Shown piece after piece: positions 7,895-24,000 of a stretch of DNA of 24,000 nucleotides; the first letter of the stretch is position 1, and every line of letters starts with the position of its first letter. Origin of the DNA: Pedobacter kyonggii (lineage in GTDB: Bacteria > Bacteroidota > Bacteroidia > Sphingobacteriales > Sphingobacteriaceae); the NCBI RefSeq assembly GCF_004310665.1, contig NZ_SIXF01000004.1, positions 153,742 to 177,741 on the forward strand. The letters run 5' to 3'. The notes under the pieces are model-generated. The model ran no database searches, had not been told where the DNA came from, and worked only from the letters and a program-made list of their open reading frames with translations. Made by a program: the position numbers and the translations under genes.

Positions 7895-9316
7895 ATGAAA
7901 AAGTATTTAGCAGGTACACTTATTATTTTGTCAGTACTGGGCTTTTCCTTGAGAGAGTCTACGGCACAATCAAATAAAAAGCCAAATATCATCATTATTC
8001 TCGTTGATGATTTGGGTTGGGGAGATGTAGGCTATCATGGTGGAAACATCCCTACGCCAAATATTGATCGACTGGCAAAACAAGGGGTAGAACTAAATAG
8101 ATTTTATACAGCAGCTGTTTGTTCGCCAACAAGGGCTGGCTTGCTTACTGGCAGATATCCGGATCGTTTCGGATTAAGGAAAACGGTTATTCCTCCCTGG
8201 TCTGATTTTGGGGTGAGCACCGATGAGGTTTTTCTGCCAGAAATGCTTAAAGCAGCAGGTTATAAAAACAGGGCCATACTCGGAAAATGGCATCTTGGTC
8301 ATGTTTCCTTAAAATATCATCCACTAAACAGGGGCTTTACCCATTTTTATGGCCATTTAAATGGTGCTATTGATTATTTTACGCATAAGCGGGAGGGCGA
8401 ACTGGATTGGCACAATGATTTTAATTCCAGTTATGATGTCGGATATTCTACTGATCTCATTGCTGATGAGGCTATTAAAAACATCAGATCATATCACAAA
8501 GAATCTCCTTTCTTCCTTTATATTGCTTTTAATGCACCCCACGGTCCACTGCAGGCCAAAGAGGATGATTTAAAGCGTTTCGGTTACGATGCTACCAAAC
8601 CAAGTTTCCCGAATGGCGGTAAAGAAGGCGATGAGGGAAGGGGTAATACCAAGCAACAAACCTATGCGGCTATGGTCAGTAATTTAGATGCTAATATTGG
8701 GAGAATATTAAAAACCTTGAACGACCTCAAAATTGATCAGAATACCATCGTACTATTCCAAAGTGATAACGGTTATGCACCAAATGAGGCTGGTTCAAGC
8801 GGTATTTTACGCGGATCTAAGTTTACCCAATGGGAAGGTGGTGTTAGAGCTCCAGCGATTATAAGATGGCCACAAGTTTTTAAGGGTGGCTGGAAAAGCG
8901 AGCAAGTTACAGGTTTTGTCGATGTTTTTCCTACGATTTTGGCTGCTGCCGATGTTATGGAAAAACCCAAAAATCCGCTCGACGGGATCAATGTTCTTCC
9001 AGTGTTAAAACAAAAGCAATCTTTTATCAATCGTAATCTCTTTTTGGGAGATGGCGTTTTGGTAAATAGGAATTGGAAAATATTGGAAAAACTGGATCAA
9101 AATTCTGGCATGAAACTAAAATCTGATGTACTTTTTCAAATCGACAGGGATGTTAGTGAAAAGAACGATGTAAAAGACCAATACACCAGTACTTACCAAT
9201 TATTAAAAAAAGATTTAGCACCATTTAATGCGATTAAGGCCACAGCAGAAGTTGCTAACTTCGATGTGGGTAAAAAAGGATTTGTCGCCCCTAAAGAATG
9301 GAAAGTTGAAAAATGA
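7895..9316 (+). CDS. S1-family sulfatase (arylsulfatase B / GalNAc-4-sulfatase-like), secreted
   Basis: PNIIIILVDDLGWGDVGYHGG, CSPTRAGLLTGRYPDRFG, GKWHLG and QSDNG motifs. It is set apart from the preceding genes by a 122-nt gap. Confidence 0.9.
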   Translation: MKKYLAGTLIILSVLGFSLRESTAQSNKKPNIIIILVDDLGWGDVGYHGGNIPTPNIDRLAKQGVELNRFYTAAVCSPTRAGLLTGRYPDRFGLRKTVIPPWSDFGVSTDEVFLPEMLKAAGYKNRAILGKWHLGHVSLKYHPLNRGFTHFYGHLNGAIDYFTHKREGELDWHNDFNSSYDVGYSTDLIADEAIKNIRSYHKESPFFLYIAFNAPHGPLQAKEDDLKRFGYDATKPSFPNGGKEGDEGRGNTKQQTYAAMVSNLDANIGRILKTLNDLKIDQNTIVLFQSDNGYAPNEAGSSGILRGSKFTQWEGGVRAPAIIRWPQVFKGGWKSEQVTGFVDVFPTILAAADVMEKPKNPLDGINVLPVLKQKQSFINRNLFLGDGVLVNRNWKILEKLDQNSGMKLKSDVLFQIDRDVSEKNDVKDQYTSTYQLLKKDLAPFNAIKATAEVANFDVGKKGFVAPKEWKVEK

Positions 9317-9490
9317 AATCAGTGAAAGGTTGGAATTGATATAAAATAGGCCATGAAATAACCACTCACCCTGCTGATAACATCATACATGATAGTGCGC
9401 TTTGATGTTGTTTTAATACAAAGCCAAATGCAATTTCAGCTGTTAATAGTTTAGTGAACCTTTTGAAAAACCTGTTAACGGGATTGACTG

Positions 9491-9790
9491 ATGAATGTAA
9501 GTGATTTTATACTACAGCGCCTGGGCAATTGAGAAAATATTCAGCTATACTGGGGATGGTATCAATGGACTGCTGGGTACGATGAACAGAAACCAGTCCA
9601 TTCGTTTTATACAGCCCCGTCATGAGGAGATGGCCGCTTTTATGGCCTGCGGACATGCCAGGTTCACTGGTGAAGTGGGCGTATACATGGCAACCTCGGG
9701 GGCTGGGGCCATACATCCGCACAACGGCTGTATGATGCGAGGCTAGACCATCAGCCTGTTATGGAGATCATCGGATAGCAAAAAGGCACT
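9491..9790 (+). pseudogene. Relic of a thiamine-diphosphate enzyme (pyruvate oxidase/PoxB-like N-terminal pyrimidine-binding domain), with frameshifts and in-frame stops
   Basis: The ATG at 9491 gives MNVSDFILQRLGN then a stop. The next frame continues IEKIFSYTGDGINGLLGTMNR..IRFIQPRHEEMAAFMACGHARFTGEVGVYMATSGAGAIH then a stop. A third frame gives YDARLDHQPVMEIIG then a stop. Together these match the conserved POX/ALS N-terminal block (..HEE.A...A.G.A..TG....C..TSGPG..H..NGL.DA..D..PVL.I.GQ). Confidence 0.7.
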
Positions 9791-10145
9791 TCTTTTGAAA
9801 GAACTGATTACGATCTTCAAATACTGGAAACAGTGGTCGACACCAGGTTTGCTGATTATCGTACTATCACGGCACATTTGCAGCATAGGCAAAATGTTAT
9901 TTTACCGGCAGCGATCGAAGCATTAACCTGGATCGCTGCAACTTTAAGGTTCCCCGAAATCTTACAGCGGGTTTATAGCGATTGTAAGCTGACCGGTTAA
10001 CAAAATCTAACCAGGATACGTCGAATGTCAGGAAGCCTCCTGTTAGTAGATTAAAAATCGTTCCCAAAGGGCTGATCAGTATTGATTTGACGGCCCGGGC
10101 ATATCATATCTGAGACACAAGGTTTACAGGCTTTTTGCTTTTTTT

Positions 10146-10174
10146 TGTAAGGATTCCATTAAGCGCCCGACTAA
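10146..10174 (+). promoter_or_regulatory. Candidate ECF-type promoter, copy 1 (upstream of the alpha/beta hydrolase)
   Basis: TGTAAGGATTCCATTAAGCGCCCGACTAA. It fits TGTAAGG-N15-CGAC(T/A)AA with the same spacing as the four other copies and is preceded by a T-run. It ends 77 nt before the ATG at 10251. Confidence 0.65.
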
Positions 10175-10250
10175 GCAATGTAATATTTGGCTGGCCCTAA
10201 ATATTGGCTGCAAGTGTAGCATCCAAGCCTCCCATTTTAAACTAAATTTA

Positions 10251-11216
10251 ATGATTATGAGAACACCTTTGATGATAATATTCTTCTTGATCATCGGTTT
10301 TTGCAATATTAAAACTGTTAAAGCACAATCTACCAAATATGATTTCCCACCTCAAACAAATTATCGCTACCAGTATGTGAAAGGTTTACGCATGTTTTAT
10401 AGAGAAGCGGGAGACAAAAACAGACCGACGATTGTTCTGCTACATGGATTTCCATCATCTTCTCATACCTATAGAAATCTTATTCCAATGTTGGCAACTC
10501 AGTACCACGTTATAGCGCCCGACAACATAGGGTCAGGATTTAGTGACAGGCTTAATCCCAATAATGTGAAGTATACATTTGATACATTGGCCAACTTTAC
10601 GAACACACTACTTGACAGCATTGGAGTTAAAGACTATGTAATGTATATGCAAGATTTTGGTGCTCCTGTAGGATACAGAATGTATGCTATGAAGCCTAAG
10701 CGTATTACTCATCTTATCGTTCAAAATGCAAATGCTTATTTAGAGGGACTCACGGCTGATAGACAATTGTTCTTCAAATCCGCACATGATGATTCTTCGA
10801 AATCTAAAATTGATTTTTTGTTTGGTTTGATGTCAAAAGAAGCCATTATCAACAAGCAATATTTATTTGATATTGACTCCTCAAGGTATGATATACAATC
10901 ACCCGATGCATGGGTTCATGATTTATACTTTTTGCAGTCGGATGCTGATAAAAAAATTCAAGTGCAATTATTTCAGGACTATTACAATAATTTGCTGAGT
11001 TATCCCTATTGGCAAGAGCTGCTAAGAAATAATCAACCAAAAACTTTAATTGCATGGGGTGAAAAGGATATGAAATTTATTTCAGAAGGGGCCAAAGCAT
11101 ATTTAAGAGATCTTCCAAATGCCGAATTACACTTACTGGATGCAGGACATTTTGCTGTTGAAGAAAAAGGAAGAGAGGTTGCCATACTTATCCTGAACTT
11201 CTTGAAGAACAACTAA
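10251..11216 (+). CDS. Secreted alpha/beta-fold hydrolase of the epoxide-hydrolase/haloalkane-dehalogenase type (Asp nucleophile)
   Basis: Signal peptide ..IIGFCNIKTVKAQS. HGFP oxyanion motif (LLHGFPSSSHTYRNL). Nucleophile-elbow-like MQDFGAPVG, with Asp where Ser would sit. C-terminal catalytic His context LLDAGHFAVEE. The start could instead be the ATG at 10257. Confidence 0.85.
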   Translation: MIMRTPLMIIFFLIIGFCNIKTVKAQSTKYDFPPQTNYRYQYVKGLRMFYREAGDKNRPTIVLLHGFPSSSHTYRNLIPMLATQYHVIAPDNIGSGFSDRLNPNNVKYTFDTLANFTNTLLDSIGVKDYVMYMQDFGAPVGYRMYAMKPKRITHLIVQNANAYLEGLTADRQLFFKSAHDDSSKSKIDFLFGLMSKEAIINKQYLFDIDSSRYDIQSPDAWVHDLYFLQSDADKKIQVQLFQDYYNNLLSYPYWQELLRNNQPKTLIAWGEKDMKFISEGAKAYLRDLPNAELHLLDAGHFAVEEKGREVAILILNFLKNN

Positions 11217-11349
11217 GTAGAGACCAGCATCAATCGGGTAAACGGCTCGGTGAAAAACCTCACAGAGCGCCACTCGAGAGTTTAGCACCCACTAAAATTT
11301 TCCGATTGCAAAGCGGCGTCAATTCCTTACAAAAAAATACAAAATACTT

Positions 11350-11378
11350 TGTAAGGATTGACGGGCTGTTACGACTAA
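11350..11378 (+). promoter_or_regulatory. Candidate autoregulatory ECF-type promoter, copy 2 (upstream of the sigma/anti-sigma pair)
   Basis: TGTAAGGATTGACGGGCTGTTACGACTAA. Same motif and spacing as the other copies. It ends 65 nt before the sigma-factor ATG at 11443. Confidence 0.7.
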
Positions 11379-11442
11379 GGGGTCAAAAAGAATGCGACAG
11401 AAATGTGGGATGAGATGACCAAACAGAACCTTATATTTAGAT

Positions 11443-12042
11443 ATGTTACAAAAAGATCCTGAGTTTGATACTATTGACAAAAATGCCATCGACCCGCACA
11501 GTTGGGTAAACAAGTATGCCGACTATCTTTTCTCTTATGCGGTCTTCCGCATCAATGATCAGGAGCAGGCGCAGGACCTGGTGCAGGAAACTTTCCTTGC
11601 AGCACTGGAACGCCAGGAAAAGTTTGAAGGCAGGAGTTCTGAGAAAACCTGGCTAACGGCTATCTTAAAAAATAAAATCGTTGACGTTTACCGCTCCAGG
11701 TCGTCGGGACTCAGTAAAGAGATCATTCAAGCGGATATAGAAAGATCGGACGAGGATTTTTTTGACCAGAACGATGGCCATTGGAATGATCAGCACAGAC
11801 CGGCTAAGCTCGGCATAGAAACCTCCGATGCGCTGGAAAATAAAGAGTTTGAAAGAATATTGAAGGCTTGCATGGATAAGCTGCCTGCGCTCTGGCTATC
11901 AGTTTTCTCTATGAAGCATATAGATGAAGAGACCACCGAGCTGATCTGCAGTGAACTCAAGATCAGCTCATCAAATTTTTGGGTCATTATTCACAGGGCT
12001 AAAGTAAACCTAAGGTCATGCCTCCAAAAAAACTGGATTTAA
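11443..12042 (+). CDS. ECF-type RNA polymerase sigma-70 family factor
   Basis: Region 2 block DLVQETFLAALERQEKFEGRSSEKTWLTAILKNKIVDVYR. Region 4 block LPALWLSVFSMKHIDEETTELICSELKISSSNFWVIIHRAKVNLRSCL. It is 199 aa and followed 10 nt later by an anti-sigma-like ORF. Confidence 0.9.
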   Translation: MLQKDPEFDTIDKNAIDPHSWVNKYADYLFSYAVFRINDQEQAQDLVQETFLAALERQEKFEGRSSEKTWLTAILKNKIVDVYRSRSSGLSKEIIQADIERSDEDFFDQNDGHWNDQHRPAKLGIETSDALENKEFERILKACMDKLPALWLSVFSMKHIDEETTELICSELKISSSNFWVIIHRAKVNLRSCLQKNWI

Positions 12043-12052
12043 GCACGAACAG

Positions 12053-12340
12053 ATGAAAGAACTAACAGAAACAGAAATAAAAAAGATTGCATACAACTGC
12101 CGTAAGGCGACCTATTTGATAGAGAAGCAGCAAATAGGCAAAATTACGTTAAGGGAGAAACTGGAACTAAAAATCCACCTGACCGGATGTGCAATTTGTG
12201 TCACTTTCATGCGGCAGAGCGCGGTGATCAATCAAATGGCCAGGAAGCTGGTGAATGCGGATTCCAATACGCTGAAGCTGGACGAAAAATTTAAAGAGCG
12301 GATGCAAAAACGCATCAATAGCCGCCTGAACAAAAATTGA
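12053..12340 (+). CDS. Small soluble zinc-binding anti-sigma factor (ZAS, RsrA-like), no transmembrane segment
   Basis: It carries H42-x3-C46-x2-C49 (IHLTGCAIC) plus C16 exactly 25 residues upstream of the His. It is 95 aa, has no hydrophobic helix, and sits immediately downstream of the ECF sigma gene. Confidence 0.7.
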   Translation: MKELTETEIKKIAYNCRKATYLIEKQQIGKITLREKLELKIHLTGCAICVTFMRQSAVINQMARKLVNADSNTLKLDEKFKERMQKRINSRLNKN

Positions 12341-12598
12341 TCAGCAAAATAAAGATTGGCTATGGAATTTTCCCTGCGCAATAGAATACATCCATTATTT
12401 GTATTCCTGTTGATAACCATCTTGTCGTTAGTCATTTTACTGTGCTTGGCCGAATCCATTTTCATTTTTTTCATTTTGTCTTTTTCCATCTTGCCCTTTT
12501 CCTGGAACGGAGATGCCAGAACGCTAAGGGAAAGGCAGGAAACGATTAAGGCTGAAAACGGTGTTTTAAACAGAAATATATGGGACTTGAAACGCCCA

Positions 12599-12784
12599 AT
12601 GGCCAATACTATGTGGGGCTGGAAATGGGGAGCGCCATTCACCCTCAGCCAATACTGGCTTATGAAAAACGGAAAGCCTTTATTAGTCGAGCACGGCGCC
12701 CCTTTAAGGCTAATCATACCAGTAAAATATGGAATTAAGAATTTAAAAAGGATTGGAAATAGCCTGTTTAGCAATAAATTTTAA
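12599..12784 (+). pseudogene. Possible C-terminal relic of a molybdopterin-binding oxidoreductase (sulfite-oxidase/MsrP-YedY fold)
   Basis: ..LMKNGKPLLVEHGAPLRLIIPVKYGIKNLKRIG.. resembles the conserved ..NG.PL....G.P.RLVVP..YG.K..K.I block at the C-terminal end of the Mo domain. The upstream part of the 142-aa ORF shows no Mo-domain features (no Cys ligand region). The last 42 nt overlap the convergent gene on the - strand. Confidence 0.4.
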
Positions 12785-13408
12785 ATCTTTTATTTCTAAA
12801 ACATTTTTGTGATATCCAAGTGTCAGCGTTCGAATTAAAGCACTTACAATTTTATCATATGTTAAGGTTTGATTAGGAAAAACAAAAGGATAAATAAGCT
12901 TAAGTCCTTTATAAATCCACCTTACATTTTTTTGTGTTTTCAAAGGAGTAATAAACCCTGGACGAAAGCTGTAAGCCACTTTAAAATGTAGCTTATTTAA
13001 TGCGTTCTCTGTTTTGCCTTTAATCCTTGCCCACATTATTTTTCCATTTTCCGAACTATCTGCATATACTCCAGATAAGTAAAAGAAAACCATATCTGGA
13101 TTGAAACCAGCAAGTTGCTTTGCAAACATTATAGTAGTATAAAAAGTGATTTGGTTGTATTTATCCTCGTTCATACCAAAGGAACTAGTGCCCGCGCAAA
13201 AGAAACAGCCATCATAGCCAGTTAGTTGGTTTTTCTGGGCGGCCATATCTGTAAAATCTTTTACGATCAGTTCAGAGAGTTTGGGATGTTTTAATGAAGA
13301 AGCTCTTCTATTTACCATCAATACTACGGTAATATCGGGATGATCAAGAGAGGCCAGCAAAATTCCTTCCCCGATCATCCCTGTAGCTCCTGTAATTATT
13401 ATTTTCAT
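12743..13408 (-). CDS. NAD(P)H-binding Rossmann protein (atypical SDR/epimerase-like)
   Basis: N-terminal MKIIITGATGMIGEGIL (GxxGxxG). It is 221 aa and the last gene of the TetR operon. Confidence 0.8.
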   Translation of the reverse strand: MKIIITGATGMIGEGILLASLDHPDITVVLMVNRRASSLKHPKLSELIVKDFTDMAAQKNQLTGYDGCFFCAGTSSFGMNEDKYNQITFYTTIMFAKQLAGFNPDMVFFYLSGVYADSSENGKIMWARIKGKTENALNKLHFKVAYSFRPGFITPLKTQKNVRWIYKGLKLIYPFVFPNQTLTYDKIVSALIRTLTLGYHKNVLEIKDLKFIAKQAISNPF

Positions 13409-13422
13409 TATTTCATTACATA

Positions 13423-13986
13423 TCAGCGTTCAATCATTTTCCAAAACATAGCGAATGTATCTAGAATGATGCTGTGCTGTTCTTTTTTAGTGAATTTGTT
13501 TGATGAAAGGTATTGATTTACACCAAACACCTGATTACTGATCAAGGCATACAATAAGTTTACATCAATATCGGCGATCTTTTGCTCCTCTACAGCCGAA
13601 CTGAAAAGCTGTAATACGGGGGTTATCTGCGCTGAAATTTTATCAGCTCCGACTTTTTTCAGATAGGGGGAATTGGAGAACTGCGCCAGAAACAAAAACT
13701 CACTGGGATTACGGAGCGACCATTTAAGCGACTCTTCATAATAGCTCTGGATAATCGCTTTTGTTGATTTAACTTCCGCCAATGCAGCATTTATGCTTTC
13801 TGCCGCATGCCCCTTCAATTTTAAGTAAAGTGAAACGATCAAGTCATCTTTAGTCGGGAAAAAATAGAACAAAGTCCCTGTTGCTATCCCTGCCTCTTTT
13901 GCAATTTTACTTGTCGGTGTATCATTAAATCCTTGTGAAACAAACAATTCTAATGCTGTTTCAAGTAACTTTTCCCTTTTATCCAT
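13423..13986 (-). CDS. TetR/AcrR-family transcriptional regulator
   Basis: N-terminal HTH LETALELFVSQGFNDTPTSKIAKEAGIATGTLFYFFPTKDDL. It is 187 aa. Confidence 0.92.
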   Translation of the reverse strand: MDKREKLLETALELFVSQGFNDTPTSKIAKEAGIATGTLFYFFPTKDDLIVSLYLKLKGHAAESINAALAEVKSTKAIIQSYYEESLKWSLRNPSEFLFLAQFSNSPYLKKVGADKISAQITPVLQLFSSAVEEQKIADIDVNLLYALISNQVFGVNQYLSSNKFTKKEQHSIILDTFAMFWKMIER

Positions 13987-13999
13987 AGGTTCCTGGCGA

Positions 14000-14407
14000 T
14001 TACTTTATATCATCCATCCGGCCACAGAACAATTCATTAACCATAATGGTATCCAAATATTCATAAAGCCCGCTAATTAAGCCGTCTTTAAAGGTAAGAA
14101 GCAACATCACATTGTTTACGTAAATACGGCCATCCTTTCGCGTTCCCCGAATATGAACATAAAGCGCTGCACGCTCTTCGTCTGCTGTAACAGACCGAAG
14201 CGTCATTTTCATTCCCGCCGGGAATCGTTCTGCTACGATGCCCCATAATTTTGTCTGGTTTTCTAGTGATTGATAACCTCCATACGGCCAGGATCCCTCG
14301 CCGCTCCACCAATAAACATAATCAGGCGTTTTTAATTCGGACATTTCATCGAAGTTACCAGCAACCATTGCATTGAAATACTTTTCTGCGATTTCTTTTG
14401 TTTTCAT
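14000..14407 (-). CDS. NTF2-fold / SnoaL-like protein
   Basis: 135 aa. The N-terminal KEIAEKYFNAMVAGNFDEM is typical of SnoaL-like/NTF2 family proteins. It is the first gene of the TetR operon. Confidence 0.7.
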   Translation of the reverse strand: MKTKEIAEKYFNAMVAGNFDEMSELKTPDYVYWWSGEGSWPYGGYQSLENQTKLWGIVAERFPAGMKMTLRSVTADEERAALYVHIRGTRKDGRIYVNNVMLLLTFKDGLISGLYEYLDTIMVNELFCGRMDDIK

Positions 14408-14588: not shown

Positions 14589-16271
14589 TTAAGAATTGGC
14601 CGACTTTACGTATCGCGTGTTCCGTCTGATCATATCTATGCCTTCTCGGTAGGGCATATAACTCAGCCCGCGCTCCCTGCGGTTTTGTTTACTTACCTGG
14701 TATAAGATACTCCAATGACGGATGATCTCTTTCCAGGCAAAAAATATCAAATGTTTAGGATCGTAAATATGAGCCGGCTCGCTGGCAGCACCATTTACCT
14801 CCATGATCTTGAATTGACCGGCACAGAGTTCCGGCCAGGTATGGTACTTCACATCTAAGCGACCGTAATAAAAGCCTGGGATCTGTGTGCAAACCGCGTG
14901 GACACTTTGTACCAGCTCGTCGGTCAGATGATCGCTAAGGTCAATAAATTTTGCGCCGCGGCTATGATTGCCATAAGGTGCCGGCAGGGCAATTTCGCCT
15001 GCGGGAATGATACGTTGCAGTGCCTGGTAATCGTATTTGGCTAATGCTGGCAGTTGCAGCAGATATCTCGGCTCTTTGGCCAACAGCTCCTGTAAAGTGG
15101 AGCATCCGTCGCCGGTTACACTCATTAGTTCCTTTCCAACGATACCAGTGATGCTTACAATATCACTGCCCGGCATTCTGTAATAAAATATCCCGGCTTC
15201 TTTAGGATAATCAATATATTCCTGCAGTAAAAAATCTACCTTACTGTTAGCTGCATAAGTCTGGAGGTCTTCCTGAGATTTTAACAATTTCACCTGCAAA
15301 CCACGTTGGCCGATATCAGGCTTGGCAATCAGTGGCAAAGCAACGTTGATGTTTGCCACCGGTGTACCAGCTTTAATCAGAATCGTCTTTGGACAATATT
15401 GCGGAATATGGGTGTAAATTTGATACTTGCTATCCATGGCGAACCCGCCATTTTTCATGCCAGGGTTAGCCGTATTAAAGAAAAAAATGGCACGTGACTT
15501 AATACTGAGCCAAAACCAATAGAACATTACAGGCGTATAGACAACATAATAAGGCCAATACTCCCAATTAAAAAGCTTTATCAAAAAAATGCGCAGATTC
15601 AACCATGAAATTTCCTTCCTAACTATATCCAACTGCTTTGCCTGTGTTGTGTTGGTTTTAAGATCCTCATATGTCATATCCACTTGGGTATAACTTACCT
15701 GGATATGTGTGATGCTTACGGTGCTAACAGGGCCCGTTAAGCATTCCGACCGATGAAAATCAATTACAGCTGCACGGTCCTTTTTATTCGCCGATTTAAA
15801 ACGGCTGAATTTTTCCCTTTGGTTTATTTCATCGTAAAGCGTTGCAGAGCTCCATATTTGCGGCTGTTGCGGATCAAGCTGAACCGAGTATTTATATGCT
15901 CCATCCCAGCGGCATTCACAAACCATCCCTTTTGTGCAAAGCACCAGGGTAAAAGGCTCAATATCGTGCAGATCAACGCTTTCAAAATACCGTTCCGGGT
16001 GAGTGTTTGCAATGACTTCCAGCAGTAGTAAGCCGCGGCTTTTCTTATAAAACGGCTTTTGGATGTGTTTGGCAAAAGCGCCGTTCAATAGTACCGCCAC
16101 GTCGCCATTTGTCTTAGCAGCGATCCAGCTACCGCTTTTATCGGGGTCTTTGGGATAAAGCAGGTTGCCATAAGTAGCCGGGGAAATCGCCGTACCGCGA
16201 TTTTGATGCTCATCCCGGTTTGAAGTCAGATAAAAGCCTTCCTTGGCCGGTATATAAGTTACGGTGCACAT
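14589..16271 (-). CDS. Fusion protein: N-terminal NRDE/TANGO2-like domain (Cys2), two predicted TM helices, C-terminal ATP-grasp ligase domain
   Basis: It starts MCTVTYIPAKEGFYLTSNRDEHQNRG, giving the Met-Cys start plus literal NRDE motif of the NRDE/TANGO2 family, with SRG and LLNG blocks further on. The hydrophobic stretch is FNWEYWPYYVVYTPVMFYWFWLSIKSRAIFFF. The ATP-grasp signatures are PLIAKPDIGQRGLQVKLL, LLQEYIDYPKEAGIFYY, and the E-x-N Mg site in FKIMEVNGAASEPAHIYDP. Confidence 0.75.
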   Translation of the reverse strand: MCTVTYIPAKEGFYLTSNRDEHQNRGTAISPATYGNLLYPKDPDKSGSWIAAKTNGDVAVLLNGAFAKHIQKPFYKKSRGLLLLEVIANTHPERYFESVDLHDIEPFTLVLCTKGMVCECRWDGAYKYSVQLDPQQPQIWSSATLYDEINQREKFSRFKSANKKDRAAVIDFHRSECLTGPVSTVSITHIQVSYTQVDMTYEDLKTNTTQAKQLDIVRKEISWLNLRIFLIKLFNWEYWPYYVVYTPVMFYWFWLSIKSRAIFFFNTANPGMKNGGFAMDSKYQIYTHIPQYCPKTILIKAGTPVANINVALPLIAKPDIGQRGLQVKLLKSQEDLQTYAANSKVDFLLQEYIDYPKEAGIFYYRMPGSDIVSITGIVGKELMSVTGDGCSTLQELLAKEPRYLLQLPALAKYDYQALQRIIPAGEIALPAPYGNHSRGAKFIDLSDHLTDELVQSVHAVCTQIPGFYYGRLDVKYHTWPELCAGQFKIMEVNGAASEPAHIYDPKHLIFFAWKEIIRHWSILYQVSKQNRRERGLSYMPYREGIDMIRRNTRYVKSANS

Positions 16272-16759
16272 CCCTGCCTGTATTTGAGCGTGGATGCCGC
16301 GATGCCAAATCCGGCCGGTATCTCTATTGCTGAGATGGCACCAATGCCTATTCTGATCAGTGCCATATGATGTACGGTATGCTCCAGGTTGTAGATAAGT
16401 TCCCGGTAGTAATTGGTTTGTATTCGGATTGATTGAGATTCCTCAGCATCATAGTTTACCACCAGCACGAGTTTCCGGTCGGGTTTCCCTAAACTACAGA
16501 TAATTTCCCGTAGACATTGCTGCGCTACCTCTTTATCGTTTTCTACGGCGTGGTTTCTTTCGCGGCGGTCATAATCAACCTCCCCGATCGCATAACCCTT
16601 ATTGAGTTCCAAATAAAACTCCAGTATATGACGGCCATGCTGACCTATGGTTGACCCGGATAAGATGGTCAGCGGATGTGTAAATTCGGTATTGGTCAGC
16701 CCGCCGATAATACCGTGTAGCTGTTCTAGCAAATTGGTTATAGGTTCTTTAAGCGGCAT
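16259..16759 (-). CDS. DinB/DinB_2-superfamily-like four-helix-bundle protein (putative metal-dependent, possibly thiol-dependent, enzyme)
   Basis: His-rich motifs sit at DinB-like positions: GQHGRHILEFY in the N-terminal third and LEHTVHHMALI (H-x3-H) near the C-terminus. It is 166 aa. Its stop overlaps the downstream ATG by 13 nt. Confidence 0.5.
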   Translation of the reverse strand: MPLKEPITNLLEQLHGIIGGLTNTEFTHPLTILSGSTIGQHGRHILEFYLELNKGYAIGEVDYDRRERNHAVENDKEVAQQCLREIICSLGKPDRKLVLVVNYDAEESQSIRIQTNYYRELIYNLEHTVHHMALIRIGIGAISAIEIPAGFGIAASTLKYRQGCAP

Positions 16760-16763
16760 AGGA

Positions 16764-17165
16764 TCAGCGATTGGTAAATGGTAGATAGTTGAACAATTGT
16801 TTTTTTAAGAGCGGCACTAATGCCATGCAGCTGATTAACGTCACTAAAGCCAAAATGAAAAGTTTACCACCATCGTTCTGTACATTGATGCCTAATTGTG
16901 TCAGGTGAAAAAAGATAGCCCCCACAATAATGCCTATGCCTAGCAGCGCGCCTAAAATAGTGGTACGGGGAAACAGGATCAATAGGGAGGCGATCAGTTC
17001 TAGGCAGCCGATGCCGATGCGTCCATATGGCTCCATCCCTAATTTGGTAAAGATATACACAGATTCCGGCGCGGCTGTAAACTTGAAGAAAAGGGTTTGC
17101 AGCATAATGCCGGCTGCTATCAGGCGGAGGCCCCAGGTTAGCATATCAAGGTTTTTTGTCGTCAC
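16764..17165 (-). CDS. DoxX-family integral membrane protein
   Basis: About 130 aa with four hydrophobic helices. WGLRLIAAGIML..FFKF.. and GCLELIASLLILFPRT are typical DoxX blocks. The start is either the GTG at 17165 or the ATG at 17144. Confidence 0.8.
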   Translation of the reverse strand: MTTKNLDMLTWGLRLIAAGIMLQTLFFKFTAAPESVYIFTKLGMEPYGRIGIGCLELIASLLILFPRTTILGALLGIGIIVGAIFFHLTQLGINVQNDGGKLFILALVTLISCMALVPLLKKQLFNYLPFTNR

Positions 17166-17211
17166 GATATTGAGATTTTAGTGTAAAAAGATATGTTTTT
17201 ATGTTTATTCT

Positions 17212-17667
17212 CTAATTTTGAGTGAACCTGGTCCAACTTATATCAGCTTTGGTTTTCAGCCTGCTCTCGTCTTTATCCCAGGATTTTTTGGTATTGTTAA
17301 GGAATTTGTTGTAAAAGAGGTAAAGCTTGCCACTTACGAGCTTAAAAGTCTCCGGGTCAACAGCTACTTTGGTGCCGCTGGCTCCCATGGCATAGGCACA
17401 CCAACCACCATATTGCGGTAAATATTTAGCGGTGTTGGCCTTAAACAGACTGCGGTGCTGGTTGCTGACAAAACGATAAGTCACGCCATCATGCACCAAC
17501 GTAATTTCTTTTTTCCCTTCGACCGCTTTTTGCATCGTAAAATACGCTACCGGGTCGTAACCTGCCAACGCAAGGCCCGTATCATCCAGGTTAAGTTGTT
17601 TTTTTTGAGCCCGTGCTGAGTTCAGGATCAAGGCTGTAAATACGATAAGCAATAGGTATTTATACAT
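17212..17667 (-). CDS. Secreted YHS-domain protein (TRASH/YHS metal-binding-type fold; Cys form)
   Basis: Signal peptide MYKYLLLIVFTALILNSARAQ. LAGYDPVAYF...GVTYRFVS..HRSLF..N..KYLPQYGGWCAYAM...GKLYLFYN matches the YHS-domain family layout. The ATG at 17667 is preferred over the TTG at 17709 in the ORF track. Confidence 0.8.
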   Translation of the reverse strand: MYKYLLLIVFTALILNSARAQKKQLNLDDTGLALAGYDPVAYFTMQKAVEGKKEITLVHDGVTYRFVSNQHRSLFKANTAKYLPQYGGWCAYAMGASGTKVAVDPETFKLVSGKLYLFYNKFLNNTKKSWDKDESRLKTKADISWTRFTQN

Positions 17668-17689
17668 AGTCTTCCGAGTGTTTACCAGC

Positions 17690-17718
17690 TTTGTCGCAGC
17701 CGGGGGCAAAACCTTACA
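17690..17718 (-). promoter_or_regulatory. Candidate ECF-type promoter, copy 3 (drives the YHS-DoxX-DinB-NRDE/ATP-grasp operon)
   Basis: The - strand reads TGTAAGGTTTTGCCCCCGGCTGCGACAAA, with the same motif and spacing. It ends 22 nt before the ATG at 17667. Confidence 0.65.
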
Positions 17719-17729
17719 ATATTTTTTTT

Positions 17730-17758
17730 TGTAAGGAAATCAGCAGGTTGCCGACAAA
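17730..17758 (+). promoter_or_regulatory. Candidate ECF-type promoter, copy 4 (drives the DM13/beta-barrel operon), back-to-back with copy 3
   Basis: TGTAAGGAAATCAGCAGGTTGCCGACAAA. It ends 25 nt before the ATG at 17784. The two -35 boxes form the inverted repeat CCTTACAAtattttttTTGTAAGG. Confidence 0.65.
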
Positions 17759-17783
17759 CCAGCAAACCACAATCAATTAGCTC

Positions 17784-18209
17784 ATGAAAAAAATCATTTA
17801 TTTCAGCACCATCATCGCACTTATGGCCAGCTGCAAAAAAGAAAGCACTCCGACCGCAGTGCTCAATGAAAAGGTGGACATGATGATGTCCAAGCCTGAA
17901 ACCGACAGTAGCGGATTTATTAACGGCCCATATGGTTCAGTAAGGGGCACAGCCCGTATATATATAACCAACGGCAAATATCAACTGGCACTGGAAAATT
18001 TTAGCAGCAGCAATGGACCCGACCTTAAAGTGTATATCAGTAAGGAGCAGCGGCCGGTCAATTTTGTGAATTTGGGTTCGCTAAAATCTACAAAAGGGAA
18101 TCAACTATATGATATCCCGGGTAATGTCAAAGTTCAGGATTATGCTTATGCACTGATCTATTGCCAGCAATACAGTCACTTATTCGGTTACACTCAATTT
18201 ACCTATTAA
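17784..18209 (+). CDS. DM13-domain lipoprotein
   Basis: Lipobox ..IIALMASC. GTARIYITNGKYQLALENFSSSNGPDLKVYIS....LGSLKSTKGNQLYDIP...DYAYALIYCQQYSHLFG matches the DM13 pattern (fixed GPDL..Y, Lk...G.q.Y.iP, and late Cys). Confidence 0.72.
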   Translation: MKKIIYFSTIIALMASCKKESTPTAVLNEKVDMMMSKPETDSSGFINGPYGSVRGTARIYITNGKYQLALENFSSSNGPDLKVYISKEQRPVNFVNLGSLKSTKGNQLYDIPGNVKVQDYAYALIYCQQYSHLFGYTQFTY

Positions 18210-18210: not shown

Positions 18211-19125
18211 ATGAAAAATATATATTTCTCTTGTATAGCCCTGCTTTGCACAACTTATACTTTTGGTCAGGGCTGCAGCGACGCAGGTTTCTGTAGCCTT
18301 GGCGTGCTCAAAAACAATGTGGCTGATTCAGCCAGGCACACCTTAAGTTTCGGCCTGAATTACGGCGTCGGCTACGAGCAGACCAACATTACTAATGCTT
18401 ATATAGAGTATGGAAGTAAACTGAGTGAACGTTTGTCCTTCCGAACTAAACTGACTGCCAATTATGCGACGGGGTTTTTAGGCAGCGCCTTTGACATAGG
18501 CGATATTTATGGTACGCTTAATTACGCCCTGAGAACTAAATCAGCCAGTACGATTAATATAATTGGCGGCGTAAAGGTGCCACTTACTGCCGGCAACCAT
18601 AAAAACAAAGATGGCAAGCCCTTACCGCTGGATTACCAAGCCAGTATCGGTACCTATGATGCCATAGGTGGTATTAATTACATCGTCAACCAAAGCTGGG
18701 AGTTTGATGCCGGAATACAGGTACCGGTTATACAGGTGAATAAAAACACCTTCTTTCCCGACGAACACAACGATTTCCGCGCAAACGAATTCGCACCTAC
18801 AAATAACTTTAAACGAAAAAGTGATGTCCTGGGCCGCATTGGTTACTATATTCAACTGCCGGCATCAGCTATTGTCTTAAAGCCAAGCTTGCTAGGTATT
18901 TATCACTTAGGCAGAGATACCTACGAAGACCGTTTTGGACAGCGCAACATCATCGAAGGCTCAGACGGTTTTACGCTGAACGGCAGCATCGTGGGCACTA
19001 AAAGATTTAAAAACGGCAATAGCCTGGAACTGCTTTTTGCAACTCCTTTCATCGTGCGTAAAGTGAGACCTGACGGACTTACCCGCAAAGGTGTCATAAA
19101 CGTCCAGTACACGATCTCGCTGTAG
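18211..19125 (+). CDS. Putative outer-membrane beta-barrel protein (MetA/phenol-degradation-type transporter-like), unknown function
   Basis: It has a signal peptide followed by the GCSDAGFCS motif. Alternating hydrophobic strands run throughout, and PLPLDYQASIGTYD is similar to the conserved loop of that barrel family. It starts 1 nt after the DM13 stop. Family call is from memory only. Confidence 0.45.
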   Translation: MKNIYFSCIALLCTTYTFGQGCSDAGFCSLGVLKNNVADSARHTLSFGLNYGVGYEQTNITNAYIEYGSKLSERLSFRTKLTANYATGFLGSAFDIGDIYGTLNYALRTKSASTINIIGGVKVPLTAGNHKNKDGKPLPLDYQASIGTYDAIGGINYIVNQSWEFDAGIQVPVIQVNKNTFFPDEHNDFRANEFAPTNNFKRKSDVLGRIGYYIQLPASAIVLKPSLLGIYHLGRDTYEDRFGQRNIIEGSDGFTLNGSIVGTKRFKNGNSLELLFATPFIVRKVRPDGLTRKGVINVQYTISL

Positions 19126-19269
19126 AAACCTATCATTGATAATGACTGACCGGGATCCGGAGCGCGGCAGAGGGGATTTTTTAATGCAACCCGGACATCA
19201 AGGCCGCAGGACAATAGGTATTGCTGCAGTTTTTTTACGTTGGAAATGACCATCAAATGCACCAGCAGC

Positions 19270-19298
19270 TGTAAGGATATGGCGGCCGTTACGACTAA
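19270..19298 (+). promoter_or_regulatory. Candidate ECF-type promoter, copy 5 (drives msrB and the DUF417 gene)
   Basis: TGTAAGGATATGGCGGCCGTTACGACTAA. It shares GTTACGACTAA with the sigma-gene copy and ends only 6 nt before the msrB ATG at 19305. Confidence 0.7.
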
Positions 19299-19304
19299 CT
19301 AAAT

Positions 19305-19811
19305 ATGAGAAGGATAAATATATTCGTATTTCCGCTTTTATTCGCAACACTGACCGCTTGTAGTCAGGGCGACGTTAAAAGCACAAAAGTGCCACATGCG
19401 CCAACTGTCGGATCCTTTCCAGCTGCTAAGCCTGACTGTTACTGGAAGAAAATATTATCGCCTGAAGCTTATGATATCATGGTCGGGAAGGGAACCGAAA
19501 GGCCTTTTAAGAACCCTTATCACGATAACCATAGGAAAGGGATCTATGTTAGTGCTGCAACTGGAAAGCCTTTGTTCGCATCTTCGGCGAAGTTCGATTC
19601 GGGTACAGGTTGGCCCAGCTTTTTTGAACCGATCGATGAAAAAGCGATCATGATCGTTAAAGATACTTCATTTGGAACGGTGCGTGACGAGGTGATCGAG
19701 CGTAGCACCGGTTTGCATTTGGGACACGTTTTTGACGATGGTCCGGCGCCGACCGGAAAACGCTATTGTATGAATTTCTACGCTTTGAAATTCATTCCAT
19801 CCAGACAATAA
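19305..19811 (+). CDS. msrB: Peptide-methionine (R)-S-oxide reductase MsrB, lipoprotein/exported form
   Basis: Lipobox LLFATLTACSQG. SelR-domain motifs KFDSGTGWPSFFEP, GLHLGHVFDDGP.PTGKRYCMN (catalytic Cys). Both structural-zinc CxxC pairs are absent (YVSAATGKPLF in place of the first). Confidence 0.92.
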   Translation: MRRINIFVFPLLFATLTACSQGDVKSTKVPHAPTVGSFPAAKPDCYWKKILSPEAYDIMVGKGTERPFKNPYHDNHRKGIYVSAATGKPLFASSAKFDSGTGWPSFFEPIDEKAIMIVKDTSFGTVRDEVIERSTGLHLGHVFDDGPAPTGKRYCMNFYALKFIPSRQ

Positions 19812-19857: not shown

Positions 19858-20292
19858 ATGAACATCAAAAAAACAGGATACGCCATCGGCGTTATCGGAA
19901 CGATCATCGTTCTATTATGGATAGGCATATTGAAATTTACGCCAACTGAAGCTGCAGCTATCAAACCCTACGTCGAGCATAGCTTTTTAATGGGCTGGAT
20001 GTACCAGATCGGAAGTGTGCAACAGGTTTCCAATTTTGTGGGAATCTTTGAACTTATAACCGCTATACTTCTTATCGCCTCGTTTTTCAACAGGCGGATG
20101 GGATTGATCGGGGGCTACCTGGGGGTGCTTATTTTCCTGACCACGCTTACCTTTATTTTCACGACACCCGGCATCTGGAAAGAGATGGACGGTTTACCCG
20201 TAACTGATTTTTTTGTTGTTAAGGACATTGCGTTCCTGGCTATTGTTCTCCAAGTGATCGGAATGCATCGAAAAGATGCCGATGCTGCATAA
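19858..20292 (+). CDS. DUF417-family (YkgB/RclC-like, DoxX-related) membrane protein
   Basis: 144 aa with four helices. IGILKFTPTEAAAIKPYVEHSFLMGWMY and VGIFELITAILLI resemble the DUF417 signature. It lies 46 nt after msrB with no motif or hairpin in between. Confidence 0.7.
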   Translation: MNIKKTGYAIGVIGTIIVLLWIGILKFTPTEAAAIKPYVEHSFLMGWMYQIGSVQQVSNFVGIFELITAILLIASFFNRRMGLIGGYLGVLIFLTTLTFIFTTPGIWKEMDGLPVTDFFVVKDIAFLAIVLQVIGMHRKDADAA

Positions 20293-21974: not shown

Positions 21975-22427
21975 CTACATTTTTTTTAAAGCCTTTTTAC
22001 CGAAAGCAATCAGTTGTTTGGCATCCAGGTAACCTATTGAACGATGCAGTACTTTTCCATCATAGTCAAGAATCAAAAGTGTAGGATATTCTTGTACTTC
22101 CCATTTTGCAGCTAAATTAGATCCTTCCCCTTTTTCCATATCAACAGCAAGATTAACAAAGTTTTGATTGAAATAATCAGCCGTCTCTCTGTCTTTAAAT
22201 GTTGTTTTTTTTAACTGCTTGCATGGACCGCACCAGGTTGTATAAGCATCGACAAAAATGTATTTATGTTCGGCTTTTGCTTTTTTTAATGCGGTTGAAT
22301 AGGCATTTTCGATAAATTTTATCGGTAATCTTTCTGTTGTTGAATCGTATGTTTTATCAACTGGCGAGAATGAACTCAGGGATAAAAGGATTGTAAATAA
22401 AAGTAATGGATATTTTAAATTTTTCAT
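21975..22427 (-). CDS. Secreted thioredoxin-family protein
   Basis: Signal peptide MKNLKYPLLLFTILLSLSSFS. The active site is WCGPC (TTWCGPCKQL). It lies 19 nt downstream of the DsbD-like gene. Confidence 0.9.
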   Translation of the reverse strand: MKNLKYPLLLFTILLSLSSFSPVDKTYDSTTERLPIKFIENAYSTALKKAKAEHKYIFVDAYTTWCGPCKQLKKTTFKDRETADYFNQNFVNLAVDMEKGEGSNLAAKWEVQEYPTLLILDYDGKVLHRSIGYLDAKQLIAFGKKALKKM

Positions 22428-22446
22428 TTGATTGGATTTTTAATTA

Positions 22447-24000
22447 TTACATGTTTTTAAATGCGGCCACTCCCTTGTCTAAAAATGTTACATATTTTGA
22501 AATATCAAGGTCGAAGGCCTGCGGGGCGGTCAACTGTTTCCCCGAACCGTTAATGATAACATAGTATGGTTGTGAATTAGTACCAAAGGTAGCAGCCTGG
22601 TAATCACCCCATTTCTGTCCTATCGTCTTTATTTTCTTTCCGTTGAATTTGGAAAGATATTTTTCATTTTCTGCAAGTTCGCTTTTGTCATCTACATAGA
22701 GAGATACAAGGATATAATCCTGCTTTAAGCGTTCGAGGACCTTTGGATCAGACCATACACTAGCTTCCATTTTACGGCAGTTGGTACAGCTCCACCCGGT
22801 GAAATCTAACAGGATTGGTTTATTTAGTTTTTTTGATTGCATAATCGCTTCCTCGTAATCATAAAAAGCATCCAAGCCGTATGGGGTATGGAAAAGAGAT
22901 GCATATTTCTTTTTGGTTGTTATTTCTGACTTCTCTGGGATTGTAGACCTTGTTAAATCAAATTCTTGTGAAGTGATAGGCGGCAACCATGCGCTGATCG
23001 ACTTCAGCGAGGCTCCGAAAACTCCTGGTATCATGTAAAACGTAAAACCAAAAACCAGCATGCTAACAAATAGGCGTGGCAGTGTAAGGGTTTTTGTTTC
23101 CGAATCATGAGAAAGCCTGATTTTTCCTGCAAGGTAAAAGCCTAGGAAGGCAAATATGGTTATCCATATAATTAGAAAAACATCCCTATTCAAAATCCCC
23201 CAGTGATAAGCCAGATCAACATTTGACAGATACTTAAAAGCCAGCGCGAATTCAAGAAAACCCAGAGACACTTTAACAGAATTCAACCACCCACCGGATT
23301 TAGGAAGCTCTTTTAACCATGAGGGGAAAATAGCAAACAAAGTAAAGGGAATTGCTAATGCTAAAGAGAATCCAAGCATACCCATTGCTGGCCCGTAATA
23401 CGTTCCTTTAGATACGGCATCGACTAGCAAAGTACCGATAATTGGCCCTGTACAGGAGAAAGACACCAGTGCGAGGGTAAAGGCCATAAAAAACAACCCC
23501 ACCATACCGCCTTTGTTGGACTTTTCATCCATCTTGTTAACCAGTACAGAAGGAAGGGTAATTTCGAAGGCCCCTAAAAAGGAAAGCGCAAAAATGATTA
23601 GAACAGCAAAAAAAATAAGATTGAACGTAGCGCTGCTCGCCGCTTCGTTTAACGCGGACGACCCGAAAAAAAATGTGATCAGCAATCCTAAACCCACATA
23701 AATGGTAATGATGAAAGTACCGTATAGAAAAGCCTTTTGTATTCCTTTGCGCCTTGATACTTCCTGTTTGGTAAAAAAGGAAATTGTTAGCGGTATCATC
23801 GGATAAATACAAGGCATAAAGAAAGCGGCCAGACCGCCGAAAAAACCTGCAATCAGGATTCCAAAGTATGAAGAAGTGCTTTCGCCAGGCATGCCATCTG
23901 TTGTGGGTTGCTCTACCTTTGACTGAACCGCGGCATTTTTACTGCCGCTTTGTTTATGCTTTCCTGTATTTGCCGCCTGTGGAGCTACAGATCCTGAACC
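22447..24000 (-). CDS. DsbD/CcdA-type thiol:disulfide interchange membrane protein with C-terminal thioredoxin-like domain, 5'-truncated by the window end
   Basis: Membrane-embedded Cys motifs FFMPCIYPMIPL and LVSFSCTGPIIG. The C-terminal domain has FTGWSCTNCRKME (CxxC). The reading frame stays open from 23893 to 24000 (GSGSVAPQAANTGK...), so the true start lies beyond the window. Confidence 0.85.
   Translation of the reverse strand, partial: GSGSVAPQAANTGKHKQSGSKNAAVQSKVEQPTTDGMPGESTSSYFGILIAGFFGGLAAFFMPCIYPMIPLTISFFTKQEVSRRKGIQKAFLYGTFIITIYVGLGLLITFFFGSSALNEAASSATFNLIFFAVLIIFALSFLGAFEITLPSVLVNKMDEKSNKGGMVGLFFMAFTLALVSFSCTGPIIGTLLVDAVSKGTYYGPAMGMLGFSLALAIPFTLFAIFPSWLKELPKSGGWLNSVKVSLGFLEFALAFKYLSNVDLAYHWGILNRDVFLIIWITIFAFLGFYLAGKIRLSHDSETKTLTLPRLFVSMLVFGFTFYMIPGVFGASLKSISAWLPPITSQEFDLTRSTIPEKSEITTKKKYASLFHTPYGLDAFYDYEEAIMQSKKLNKPILLDFTGWSCTNCRKMEASVWSDPKVLERLKQDYILVSLYVDDKSELAENEKYLSKFNGKKIKTIGQKWGDYQAATFGTNSQPYYVIINGSGKQLTAPQAFDLDISKYVTFLDKGVAAFKNM

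Follow-up and report, generated by a model that had tools for sequence, protein, structure and literature searches.

The sigma factor gene and its short downstream partner

A 24,000-nucleotide (nt) stretch of the Pedobacter kyonggii genome (contig NZ_SIXF01000004.1, positions 153,742 to 177,741; hereafter the window) was analysed for a gene pair that encodes an extracytoplasmic function (ECF) sigma factor and a candidate cytoplasmic anti-sigma factor of the zinc-binding anti-sigma (ZAS) type. The two genes lie on the same strand with 10 nt between them, and the coordinates of all features are collected in Table 1. An initial annotation, made by a model from the sequence alone, had described the same two open reading frames (ORFs) and had claimed that the second, of 95 amino acids (aa), is soluble and carries Cys and His residues spaced as in the Streptomyces coelicolor anti-sigma factor RsrA; both ORFs were found where it had placed them. 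The sigma ORF matched the Pfam family Sigma70_r2 (E 5e-15), its best NCBIfam match was TIGR02943 at 161.2 bits (cut-off 162.2), and SigW was its best match among PDB profiles. The pair is very probably a Bacteroidota member of the module known as Ecf-MseR in Neisseria and RpoE2-HrsE in Haemophilus, and our confidence in this identity and in the nature of the regulon is high.

The arrangement of the pair is conserved among relatives. The sigma gene was located directly 5' of the anti-sigma gene in 76 of 80 related genomic loci, co-oriented and with gaps of about 0-25 nt, and the exceptions were three orphan anti-sigma copies and one locus with a sigma remnant only. No conserved protease or partner gene adjoining the pair was seen in the related loci.

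The motif C16-x25-H42-x3-C46-x2-C49 could be read directly from the translation of the second ORF (MKELTETEIKKIAYNC16RKAT...KIH42LTGC46AIC49V), as the initial annotation had claimed. Kyte-Doolittle hydropathy, averaged over 19 residues, reached a maximum of only 1.33, so no transmembrane (TM) helix is indicated, in agreement with the description of the protein as soluble. A total of 210 close homologues, all of about 89-107 aa and mostly annotated as 'hypothetical', were found in Pedobacter, Olivibacter, Mucilaginibacter, Arcticibacter and Chitinophaga, and C16, H42, C46 and C49 were invariant in 121/121 close homologues; loss of these residues in orthologues had been named in advance as grounds for rejection. 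When 1.84 billion cluster representatives were searched with a profile, 1464 relatives were obtained at E <= 0.001, nearly all of 80-110 aa, and among the best 150 of these 1464 the H-x3-C-x2-C motif was present in 145, with a Cys 26 residues before the His in 132 of the 145. When the 95 columns were ranked by conservation over 137 representatives that were 26-54% identical to the window protein, the top four were C49, H42, C46 and C16 (conservation 0.95-0.99). Because the putative ligands are invariant or the most conserved positions and the gene is syntenic with the sigma gene, the motif is not a chance occurrence. The family consensus at the His-Cys-Cys stretch was H-L-[ASL]-[GIM]-C-x-x-C-[RK]-x-[YF]; the window protein reads H-L-T-G-C-A-I-C-V-T.

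An AlphaFold model built on a 51-sequence alignment (predicted local distance difference test score 89.9) contained four predicted helices at residues 6-28, 33-45, 47-69 and 78-94, with C16 in helix 1, H42 at the end of helix 2, C46 in the loop between helices 2 and 3, and C49 at the start of helix 3. Such an arrangement of ligands and helices has been described for ZAS domains (PMC3177212, PMC7406223), in which H-x3-C-x2-C spans helix 2 and helix 3 (motif definition in PMC7907618 and PMC7406223), and the four predicted helices are laid out as in class I anti-sigma domains, the fold of which is a three-helix bundle with a fourth helix. The window protein has both H-x3-C-x2-C and the upstream Cys at x25, and one of its homologues carries a precomputed match to PF13490. 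A class I anti-sigma domain neighbours about 6% of Bacteroidetes ECFs as compared with 32% overall (PMC7406223), which bears out the earlier remark that an anti-sigma factor of this type is unusual for the phylum.

Variations on the pair were also recorded. The orphan anti-sigma genes, which have no sigma gene upstream, are located at about 8001-8267 of three Mucilaginibacter spp. loci (L055, L056 and L074), and at locus L070 the sigma gene is reduced to a remnant of 38 residues. Three anti-sigma genes across the loci have a sigma-type promoter directly in front of them; if these three are the orphan copies, this suggests extra negative-feedback copies. A second, paralogous pair was found at locus L047 (contig CBFGNP010000087.1, 375-3530), which was assigned to the genome of the window; the two anti-sigma proteins are 62% identical, and the second pair has its own promoter as well as divergent, motif-bearing AhpC-TSA/redoxin and spondin-domain genes. 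Two pairs per genome were likewise present in several other genomes (Pedobacter sp. V48, P. miscanthi). In protein P0265 (249 aa, 19 cluster members), a distant relative of the anti-sigma family annotated as an ActR/RegA-family response regulator, a C-x25-H-x3-C-x2-C domain is fused to a C-terminal response-regulator receiver domain.

Table 1. Positions of the gene pair, promoters, predicted regulon genes and gene remnant in the window (PWM, position weight matrix score).
Feature	Position	Strand	Support
ECF sigma factor gene, 199 aa	11443..12042	+	Pfam Sigma70_r2, TIGR02943, BLASTP to gonococcal Ecf
Sigma codons C143, C169, C193	11869-11871, 11947-11949, 12019-12021	+	
Candidate cytoplasmic ZAS-type anti-sigma gene, 95 aa, putative Zn ligands C16/H42/C46/C49	12053..12340	+	
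Autoregulatory promoter, TTTGTAAGGATT (-35), 12-nt spacer, CGACTAA (-10)	11348..11381	+	PWM 32.6
Promoter before exported alpha/beta hydrolase gene, 74 nt upstream	10144..10177	+	PWM 33.8, exact pattern
Promoter of YHS-DoxX-ORF166 operon	17687..17720	-	PWM 25.0, exact pattern
Promoter of DM13 lipoprotein and outer-membrane protein genes	17728..17761	+	PWM 24.6, exact pattern
Promoter immediately 5' of msrB	19268..19301	+	PWM 26.4, exact pattern
Alpha/beta hydrolase with signal peptide, predicted regulon member	10251..11216	+	PF00561 E 1.6e-26
YHS-domain protein	17212..17670	-	NF041384 132.5 bits
DoxX	16764..17165	-	DoxX_2
166-aa ORF (ORF166)	16259..16759	-	no family match
DM13 lipoprotein	17784..18209	+	Pfam DM13
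Outer-membrane beta-barrel protein	18211..19125	+	Pfam OMP_b-brl
Lipoprotein methionine-R-sulfoxide reductase MsrB	19305..19811	+	SelR E 9.7e-43; lipobox ...LTAC
RclC-like DUF417 membrane protein	19858..20292	+	DUF417 E 3.8e-34
Decayed remnant, C-terminal ~48 residues of MsrP-like molybdoenzyme	12356..12784	+	homologue alignment

Promoter motif and predicted regulon

In the sequences upstream of 68 orthologous sigma genes, the shared elements were TTGTAAGG(A/T)TT, a 12-nt spacer and (C)CGACTAA, and the derived promoter was TTGTAAGGWTT-N12-CGACTAA. The core pattern GTAAGG-N15-CGAC was present upstream of the sigma gene in 54 of the 68 loci, and the spacing was exact in 54 of the 55 instances found. 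The exact pattern occurred in five copies in the window, compared with 0.01 expected, and 0/100 shuffles reached five; with a weight matrix the five copies scored 24.6-33.8, and nothing scored between 9 and 24. One of them is located 62 nt before the sigma start codon. The window promoter, which was derived independently, agrees in both boxes and in spacer length with the neisserial sigmaE consensus, given as GTMAGBWTT, a 12-13-nt spacer and CGTCTAAH (PMC2893595). A promoter as sharply defined as this is usable for genome-wide regulon prediction.

Signal or lipoprotein peptides are present on almost all of the window targets. The YHS, DoxX and ORF166 genes form a predicted regulon operon on the minus strand (16259..17670), and in Olivibacter an alpha/beta hydrolase gene likewise adjoins the sigma/anti-sigma pair. 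The RclC model NF040476 scored 68 bits on the DUF417 protein, which is under its cut-off. A regulon of msrB, DoxX and DinB-like genes had been predicted in the initial annotation; the first two members were confirmed by the shared promoter motif, and the earlier view that the local regulon fits oxidative-damage repair is supported, whereas the DinB-like member could not be confirmed, ORF166 having no family match. No motif copy precedes the Trx-DsbD genes (21975..23892) in the window, and their upstream region may extend past the window end. Downstream of ORF166 lies the gene for a 560-aa protein (14589-16271, minus strand). At its N-terminus, residues 12-114 form a TANGO2-like domain, and the long C-terminal region has no family match; because the gene is on the same strand, directly downstream and overlaps ORF166 by 13 nt, it may belong to the same operon.

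Some details of the promoter copies were recorded separately. The two copies at 17687-17761 are placed back-to-back on opposite strands, 7 nt apart, with the YHS-DoxX genes leftwards and the DM13 and outer-membrane protein genes rightwards, and the same divergent arrangement was seen next to the sigma gene in relatives (e.g. L012, L075). At 19292-19307, the -10 box ends 6 nt before the msrB ATG at 19305, and by the neisserial rule (transcription start 6 nt after the -10 box) the transcript of msrB would have no leader, or almost none. At 11325-11356 the two 9-bp arms of an inverted repeat, CCTTACAAA ... TTTGTAAGG, are separated by a loop of 14 nt, and the right-hand arm falls within the -35 box of the sigma promoter. 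This repeat may form a hairpin, serve as an operator or be what is left of the -35 box of a divergent promoter since lost; about 26 related loci have CCTTACA upstream of their sigma gene.

Across 83 loci, 178 strong motif hits were obtained. The motif preceded the sigma gene in 62 of 75 loci, an AhpC-TSA/redoxin-fold (thioredoxin-fold) gene in 19 of 31, a spondin-domain protein gene in 17 of 22, a DUF1223 gene, the first of an operon that also encodes cytochrome b561 and an MsrP-like molybdoenzyme, in 15 of 17, a YHS gene in 10 of 11, an MsrB gene in 8 of 11 and a DM13 gene in 4 of 4. In at least 11 loci the gene directly 3' of the anti-sigma gene encodes a signal peptide followed by KM-rich (methionine-rich) repeats; the KM-repeat peptide of locus L085 has a weak match to the MXKDX repeat family TIGR02953, and at L075 the KM-repeat peptide gene has its own copy of the motif. 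Nearly every target is an exported protein, and the common theme of the regulon is that oxidised methionine and thiols of the envelope are repaired or protected. There is good support for a response to oxidants, of which reactive chlorine is the probable one.

The sequence that follows the anti-sigma gene in the window looks like wreckage of regulon genes. Residues 94-141 of the ORF at 12356..12784 aligned with residues ~200-247 of the MsrP-like proteins of relatives (260-270 aa) at 63-70% identity (E about 1e-13 to 1e-15), and its Pfam and NCBIfam matches were fragmentary only; at locus L084 an intact cytochrome b and MsrP-like pair is located after the anti-sigma gene. This ORF had been considered as a real third gene, its first 21 residues resembling an Olivibacter ORF (E 0.015), and is now read as a composite of decayed sequence. 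The minus strand at about 12390-12560 encodes ...SLSVLASPFQEKGKMEKDKMKKMKMDSAKHSKM..., which resembles the end of the signal peptide and the KM-repeats of the Met-rich peptides of relatives; the stretch is inverted and has no ATG, GTG or TTG start. Further on, the minus strand at 12743-14407 encodes a TetR-family regulator, a SnoaL-like protein and an NAD-binding epimerase-like protein, the last of which overlaps the end of the MsrP-like fragment, and this block seems to have taken the place of what relatives have after their anti-sigma gene.

Comparison with characterised ECF modules

Comparison with Neisseria was based on a tblastn search of PLSDB with the sigma factor, which led to a 2.17-Mb N. 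gonorrhoeae record, NZ_CP119142.1 (locus L090). The record is labelled 'plasmid p2022NG-0032_1' but equals a complete N. gonorrhoeae chromosome in size; it carries only 17 annotated features and appears to be mis-filed as a plasmid. At the gonococcal locus, the Ecf sigma gene is accompanied by DoxX, DUF692- and DUF2063-like genes and by a 59-aa ORF that is MseR, with C4/H30/C34/C37. The window sigma factor was 39% identical to neisserial sigmaE (Ecf, NMB2144/NGO1944) over 176 aa (BLASTP, E 1e-33), and the anti-sigma family profile matched MseR (NMB2145) with an hhalign probability of 93.2% (E 3e-7), in a register that places C16/H42/C46/C49 on C4/H30/C34/C37. The order of the two genes is the same, the promoters have their boxes and spacer in common, GTAAGGWTT-N12-CG(A/T)CTAA (PMC2893595), and in Neisseria, too, the regulon has a methionine sulfoxide reductase, a protein of the DoxX type and proteins of the outer membrane (PMC7907618). 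Because the sigma factor, anti-sigma factor, promoter and regulon all match, the window is considered to hold a Bacteroidota member of the Ecf/MseR-type module. C4, C34 and C37 of MseR are needed for its anti-sigma activity, and MseR controls MsrA/B; its authors also remarked on the exact RsrA-like spacing (PMC2893595).

The two systems differ in several respects. MseR has 59 aa, whereas the Pedobacter protein is about 35 residues longer and has in addition a conserved C-terminal part, predicted as helix 4, in which L76, F80, K81 and L84 are conserved; because this helix is present, the Bacteroidota protein would have the full four-helix anti-sigma layout. In Neisseria the operon has DUF692/DUF2063-type genes upstream of the sigma gene (10.1101/072470), whereas no match to DUF692 or DUF2063 was found among the window ORFs scanned. 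The Bacteroidota regulon is also the larger, relatives adding MsrP-like/cytochrome b genes, Met-rich peptides and thioredoxin-fold proteins.

Haemophilus influenzae RpoE2/HrsE ('ECF group 13') is similar in having a small (67-aa) cytoplasmic ZAS anti-sigma factor and an envelope-repair regulon (PMC7907618). The rpoE2 gene is induced by hypochlorous acid (HOCl) and hydrogen peroxide (H2O2), and the genes under RpoE2/HrsE control include those of periplasmic MsrAB, of a DoxX operon and of other repair functions in the periplasm (PMC7907618). It belongs to another phylum, its anti-sigma factor has fewer residues and neither an MsrP nor a Met-rich peptide arm has been reported for it, and its homology to the window pair is drawn through Neisseria. 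RpoE2/HrsE is the best functional model for the window.

The S. coelicolor system SigR-RsrA (ECF12) also has a soluble ZAS protein with Cys-His-Cys-Cys at identical spacing, and its regulon includes thioredoxin and Msr functions, so that it can serve as the mechanistic template for oxidant-triggered loss of zinc. The RsrA ligands (C11/H37/C41/C44) and the disulfide of the upstream Cys (C11-C44) had been given correctly in the initial annotation (PMC3177212). The spacing is not a mark of RsrA in particular, since it is the generic ZAS layout, C/H-x23-26-H-x3-C-x2-C (PMC7907618), and that of MseR is identical (PMC2893595). The RsrA-type assignment was therefore abandoned: the RsrA equivalog model TIGR03988 scored 14.3 bits on the window protein compared with a cut-off of 62.5, which eliminated it as an RsrA orthologue, the residues that make RsrA redox-sensitive are lacking (see below), and the closest characterised relatives are MseR and HrsE. 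An hhalign comparison of the family with an RsrA sequence entered by hand aligned only the His-Cys-Cys stretch, without significance, and the window sigma factor is nearer to TIGR02943/Ecf than to SigR.

The content of the larger regulon in relatives resembles that of the ECF16 systems SigF-NrsF (Azospira, Caulobacter, and BcrS-AbcS in Brucella), which share a Met-rich periplasmic peptide, a molybdenum methionine sulfoxide reductase, a cytochrome b partner and an autoregulated ECF sigma factor. It is in Proteobacteria that the Met-rich peptide and MsrP/cytochrome b arm is known to be under NrsF, and the MXKDX (MrpX) peptide and MsrP/MsrPQ systems under SigF-NrsF are HOCl-responsive defences in Azospira and Brucella (PMC4436054, PMC8315932). 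The sensor differs: ECF16 systems have a six-TM DUF1109 anti-sigma factor with periplasm-exposed Cys, whereas the protein here is a 95-aa cytoplasmic ZAS protein with neither a TM helix nor a DUF1109 match.

Candidate mechanism and alternative readings

Binding of the sigma factor, binding of zinc, an oxidant as the signal and the cysteines as its sensor are the steps that we infer for the module; the gene pair with its synteny, the conservation of the ligands, the homology to Ecf/MseR and the promoter with the genes behind it are observed. In the unstressed cell, the 95-aa four-helix protein would hold the sigma factor, its fold being stabilised by zinc on C16, H42, C46 and C49. A thiol-reactive oxidant, most likely a reactive chlorine species (HOCl) and possibly peroxide, would attack the zinc-thiolate site, and with the loss of zinc the sigma factor would be released for transcription from TTGTAAGGWTT-N12-CGACTAA promoters. 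The targets in the window would be its own operon, the exported hydrolase gene, the genes for MsrB and the RclC-like protein, the YHS/DoxX operon and the DM13 and outer-membrane protein genes; those in relatives would also include MsrP-like/cytochrome b/DUF1223 operons, thioredoxin-fold proteins and secreted MXKDX-type peptides, which, being rich in Met, are possible sacrificial oxidant sinks. The proposal as a whole, an Ecf-MseR/RpoE2-HrsE-type module with oxidant-triggered zinc-thiolate release, is given an even chance of being correct.

Several results weigh against this proposal, some of which concern the identification of the 95-aa protein as an anti-sigma factor. The search with zf-HC2/ZAS profile models that the initial annotation had suggested gave 13.5 bits for PF13490, short of the cut-off of 22.2, and the NCBIfam model NF052368 'anti-sigma factor family protein' scored 44.1 bits (E 1.4e-11), short of its cut-off of 50. 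PDB searches with the sequence and with the family profile returned no match, and when the model was compared with PDB structures by Foldseek nothing was significant, RsiW coming first at E 1.2 and RslA (TM-score 0.63 over 59 residues) and MucA also being listed, all at E >= 1.2. Scores under the curated thresholds and the lack of a significant sequence or fold match in PDB would suit a small zinc-ribbon-like protein that is co-transcribed with the sigma gene and has a role other than that of an anti-sigma factor. Such a protein is very improbable here, given the adjacency and co-orientation with the sigma gene at short gaps in nearly all loci, the homology to MseR, whose anti-sigma activity has been shown genetically (PMC2893595), and the four helices predicted as in class I anti-sigma domains.

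The remaining points concern the redox switch itself. Bacillus subtilis SigW-RsiW and Rhodobacter RpoE-ChrR are comparable to the window pair in their class I anti-sigma domain and H-x3-C-x2-C zinc motif. RsiW responds by regulated proteolysis, and ChrR has a C-terminal cupin domain. They differ from the window protein in that RsiW is membrane-anchored and is reported to respond to cell-envelope stress (PMC3177212) and ChrR responds to singlet oxygen, not to peroxide or diamide (PMC2893595). Zinc is not required for RsiW to bind SigW, and the RsiW motif is taken to be structural (PMC7406223); RsiW, ChrR and RsuA have all been reported as insensitive to thiol oxidants (PMC3177212), and the Cys-His-Cys-Cys ZAS motif alone is no proof of redox sensing. 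Redox sensitivity is conferred on RsrA by E39, E40, L45 and E46 (PMC3177212), which are absent here, the window protein having T44, G45, V50 and T51 and the family [ASL][GIM]-C-x-x-C-[RK]-[LI]. The meningococcal homologue showed no induction by H2O2, diamide or singlet oxygen (PMC2893595).

A less likely, though serious, alternative has the same module and regulon with a zinc site that is purely structural, the signal entering elsewhere, for which C143/C193 of the sigma factor, regulated proteolysis of the anti-sigma factor or another partner are candidates. The absence of the RsrA redox determinants, the structural zinc motif of RsiW and the lack of an MseR response to H2O2 or diamide all favour it, as does the conservation of the sigma4 region, in which C143, C169 and C193 were invariant in 69/69 sigma orthologues. 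C143 and C193, 50 residues apart, align with C133 and C183 of gonococcal Ecf, and a Cys pair 133/183 is a hallmark of ECF18/19 that has been implicated in the redox control of Mycobacterium tuberculosis SigK (PMC7509140, PMC7826278); the sigma factor itself may, judging from its sequence, be redox-sensitive. The window sigma factor shares this Cys pair, which flanks sigma4, with ECF18/ECF19 and lacks their RskA-like membrane-anchored partner, its own partner being soluble and of 95 aa; ECF13/293 and the ECF18/19 clade are the two candidate formal groups for it. A PDB sequence search with the sigma4 segment gave no match. Because an hhalign comparison of the sigma family with a SigK sequence entered by hand aligned sigma2 and not sigma4, the SigK-like reading of C143/C193 draws on spacing and the Ecf alignment only, and this counts against an entry of the signal through the sigma factor, just as the lack of a conserved protease or partner gene beside the pair counts against the other routes. 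The position of the four ligands as the most conserved columns of the anti-sigma family is compatible with either role of the zinc.

The zinc-thiolate switch in the anti-sigma factor is put forward only as plausible, because the RsrA determinants are absent, the motif also occurs in oxidant-insensitive ZAS proteins, induction in the meningococcus was negative and the sigma cysteines offer a competing site. A more elaborate scheme, in which the anti-sigma zinc-thiolate and the sigma4 Cys pair would both have to be oxidised or reduced to set activity as a two-layer sensor specific for reactive chlorine, and in which this cytoplasmic sensor would control in Bacteroidota the sacrificial Met-rich peptide/MsrP/MsrB envelope defence that in Proteobacteria is under the membrane sensor NrsF, is improbable.

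The signal might also be mainly a cue other than an oxidant, such as copper or metal stress or a general envelope defect, with the redox genes forming part of a broader envelope regulon. The regulon contains a YHS-domain protein, and the YHS domain in other proteins is taken to bind metal. The DM13, outer-membrane, spondin-domain and alpha/beta hydrolase proteins are not obvious oxidant defences, and a bioRxiv note says of the gonococcal homologue that it 'responds to heavy metal stress' (10.1101/072470). Such a cue is nevertheless improbable as the main one, since the recurrent targets are MsrB, MsrP-like proteins with cytochrome b, thioredoxin/peroxiredoxin-fold proteins, MXKDX peptides and an RclC-like protein, and the Haemophilus homologue is induced by HOCl and H2O2 (PMC7907618).

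Soluble ZAS anti-sigma factors that control Msr/DoxX envelope repair are an already known kind of system, and in the literature searched, coverage of which was incomplete, no earlier report of it in Bacteroidetes or Pedobacter was found. For the specialist the result is useful more than surprising. It provides a candidate oxidant or bleach stress regulator for Sphingobacteriia and Chitinophagia, which are abundant soil and rhizosphere Bacteroidota, and it indicates that class I anti-sigma domains are under-detected in Bacteroidota, the present family lying just under the Pfam and NCBIfam thresholds and being annotated mostly as 'hypothetical'. It also joins two systems of methionine repair in the envelope on which work has so far run apart, namely MsrAB/DoxX under small ZAS anti-sigma factors and MrpX/MsrPQ under NrsF. 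For the signal of MseR/HrsE-type proteins, those of the pathogens included, cultivable Pedobacter or Mucilaginibacter, with their larger regulon, could be convenient models.

Elsewhere in the window, the forward strand at 99-9316 carries five sulfatase genes, a GH5-like glycoside hydrolase gene and a gene for a DUF3823 protein, a run that resembles a portion of a polysaccharide-utilisation locus acting on a sulfated glycan and has no relation to the sigma pair. In the gap at 9317-10140 that follows, a short ORF at 9501-9746 (...RFIQPRHEEMAAFMACGHARFTGEVGVYMATSGAGAIH...) resembles, by eye only, a truncated N-terminal domain of a thiamine-diphosphate enzyme and may be a pseudogene fragment.

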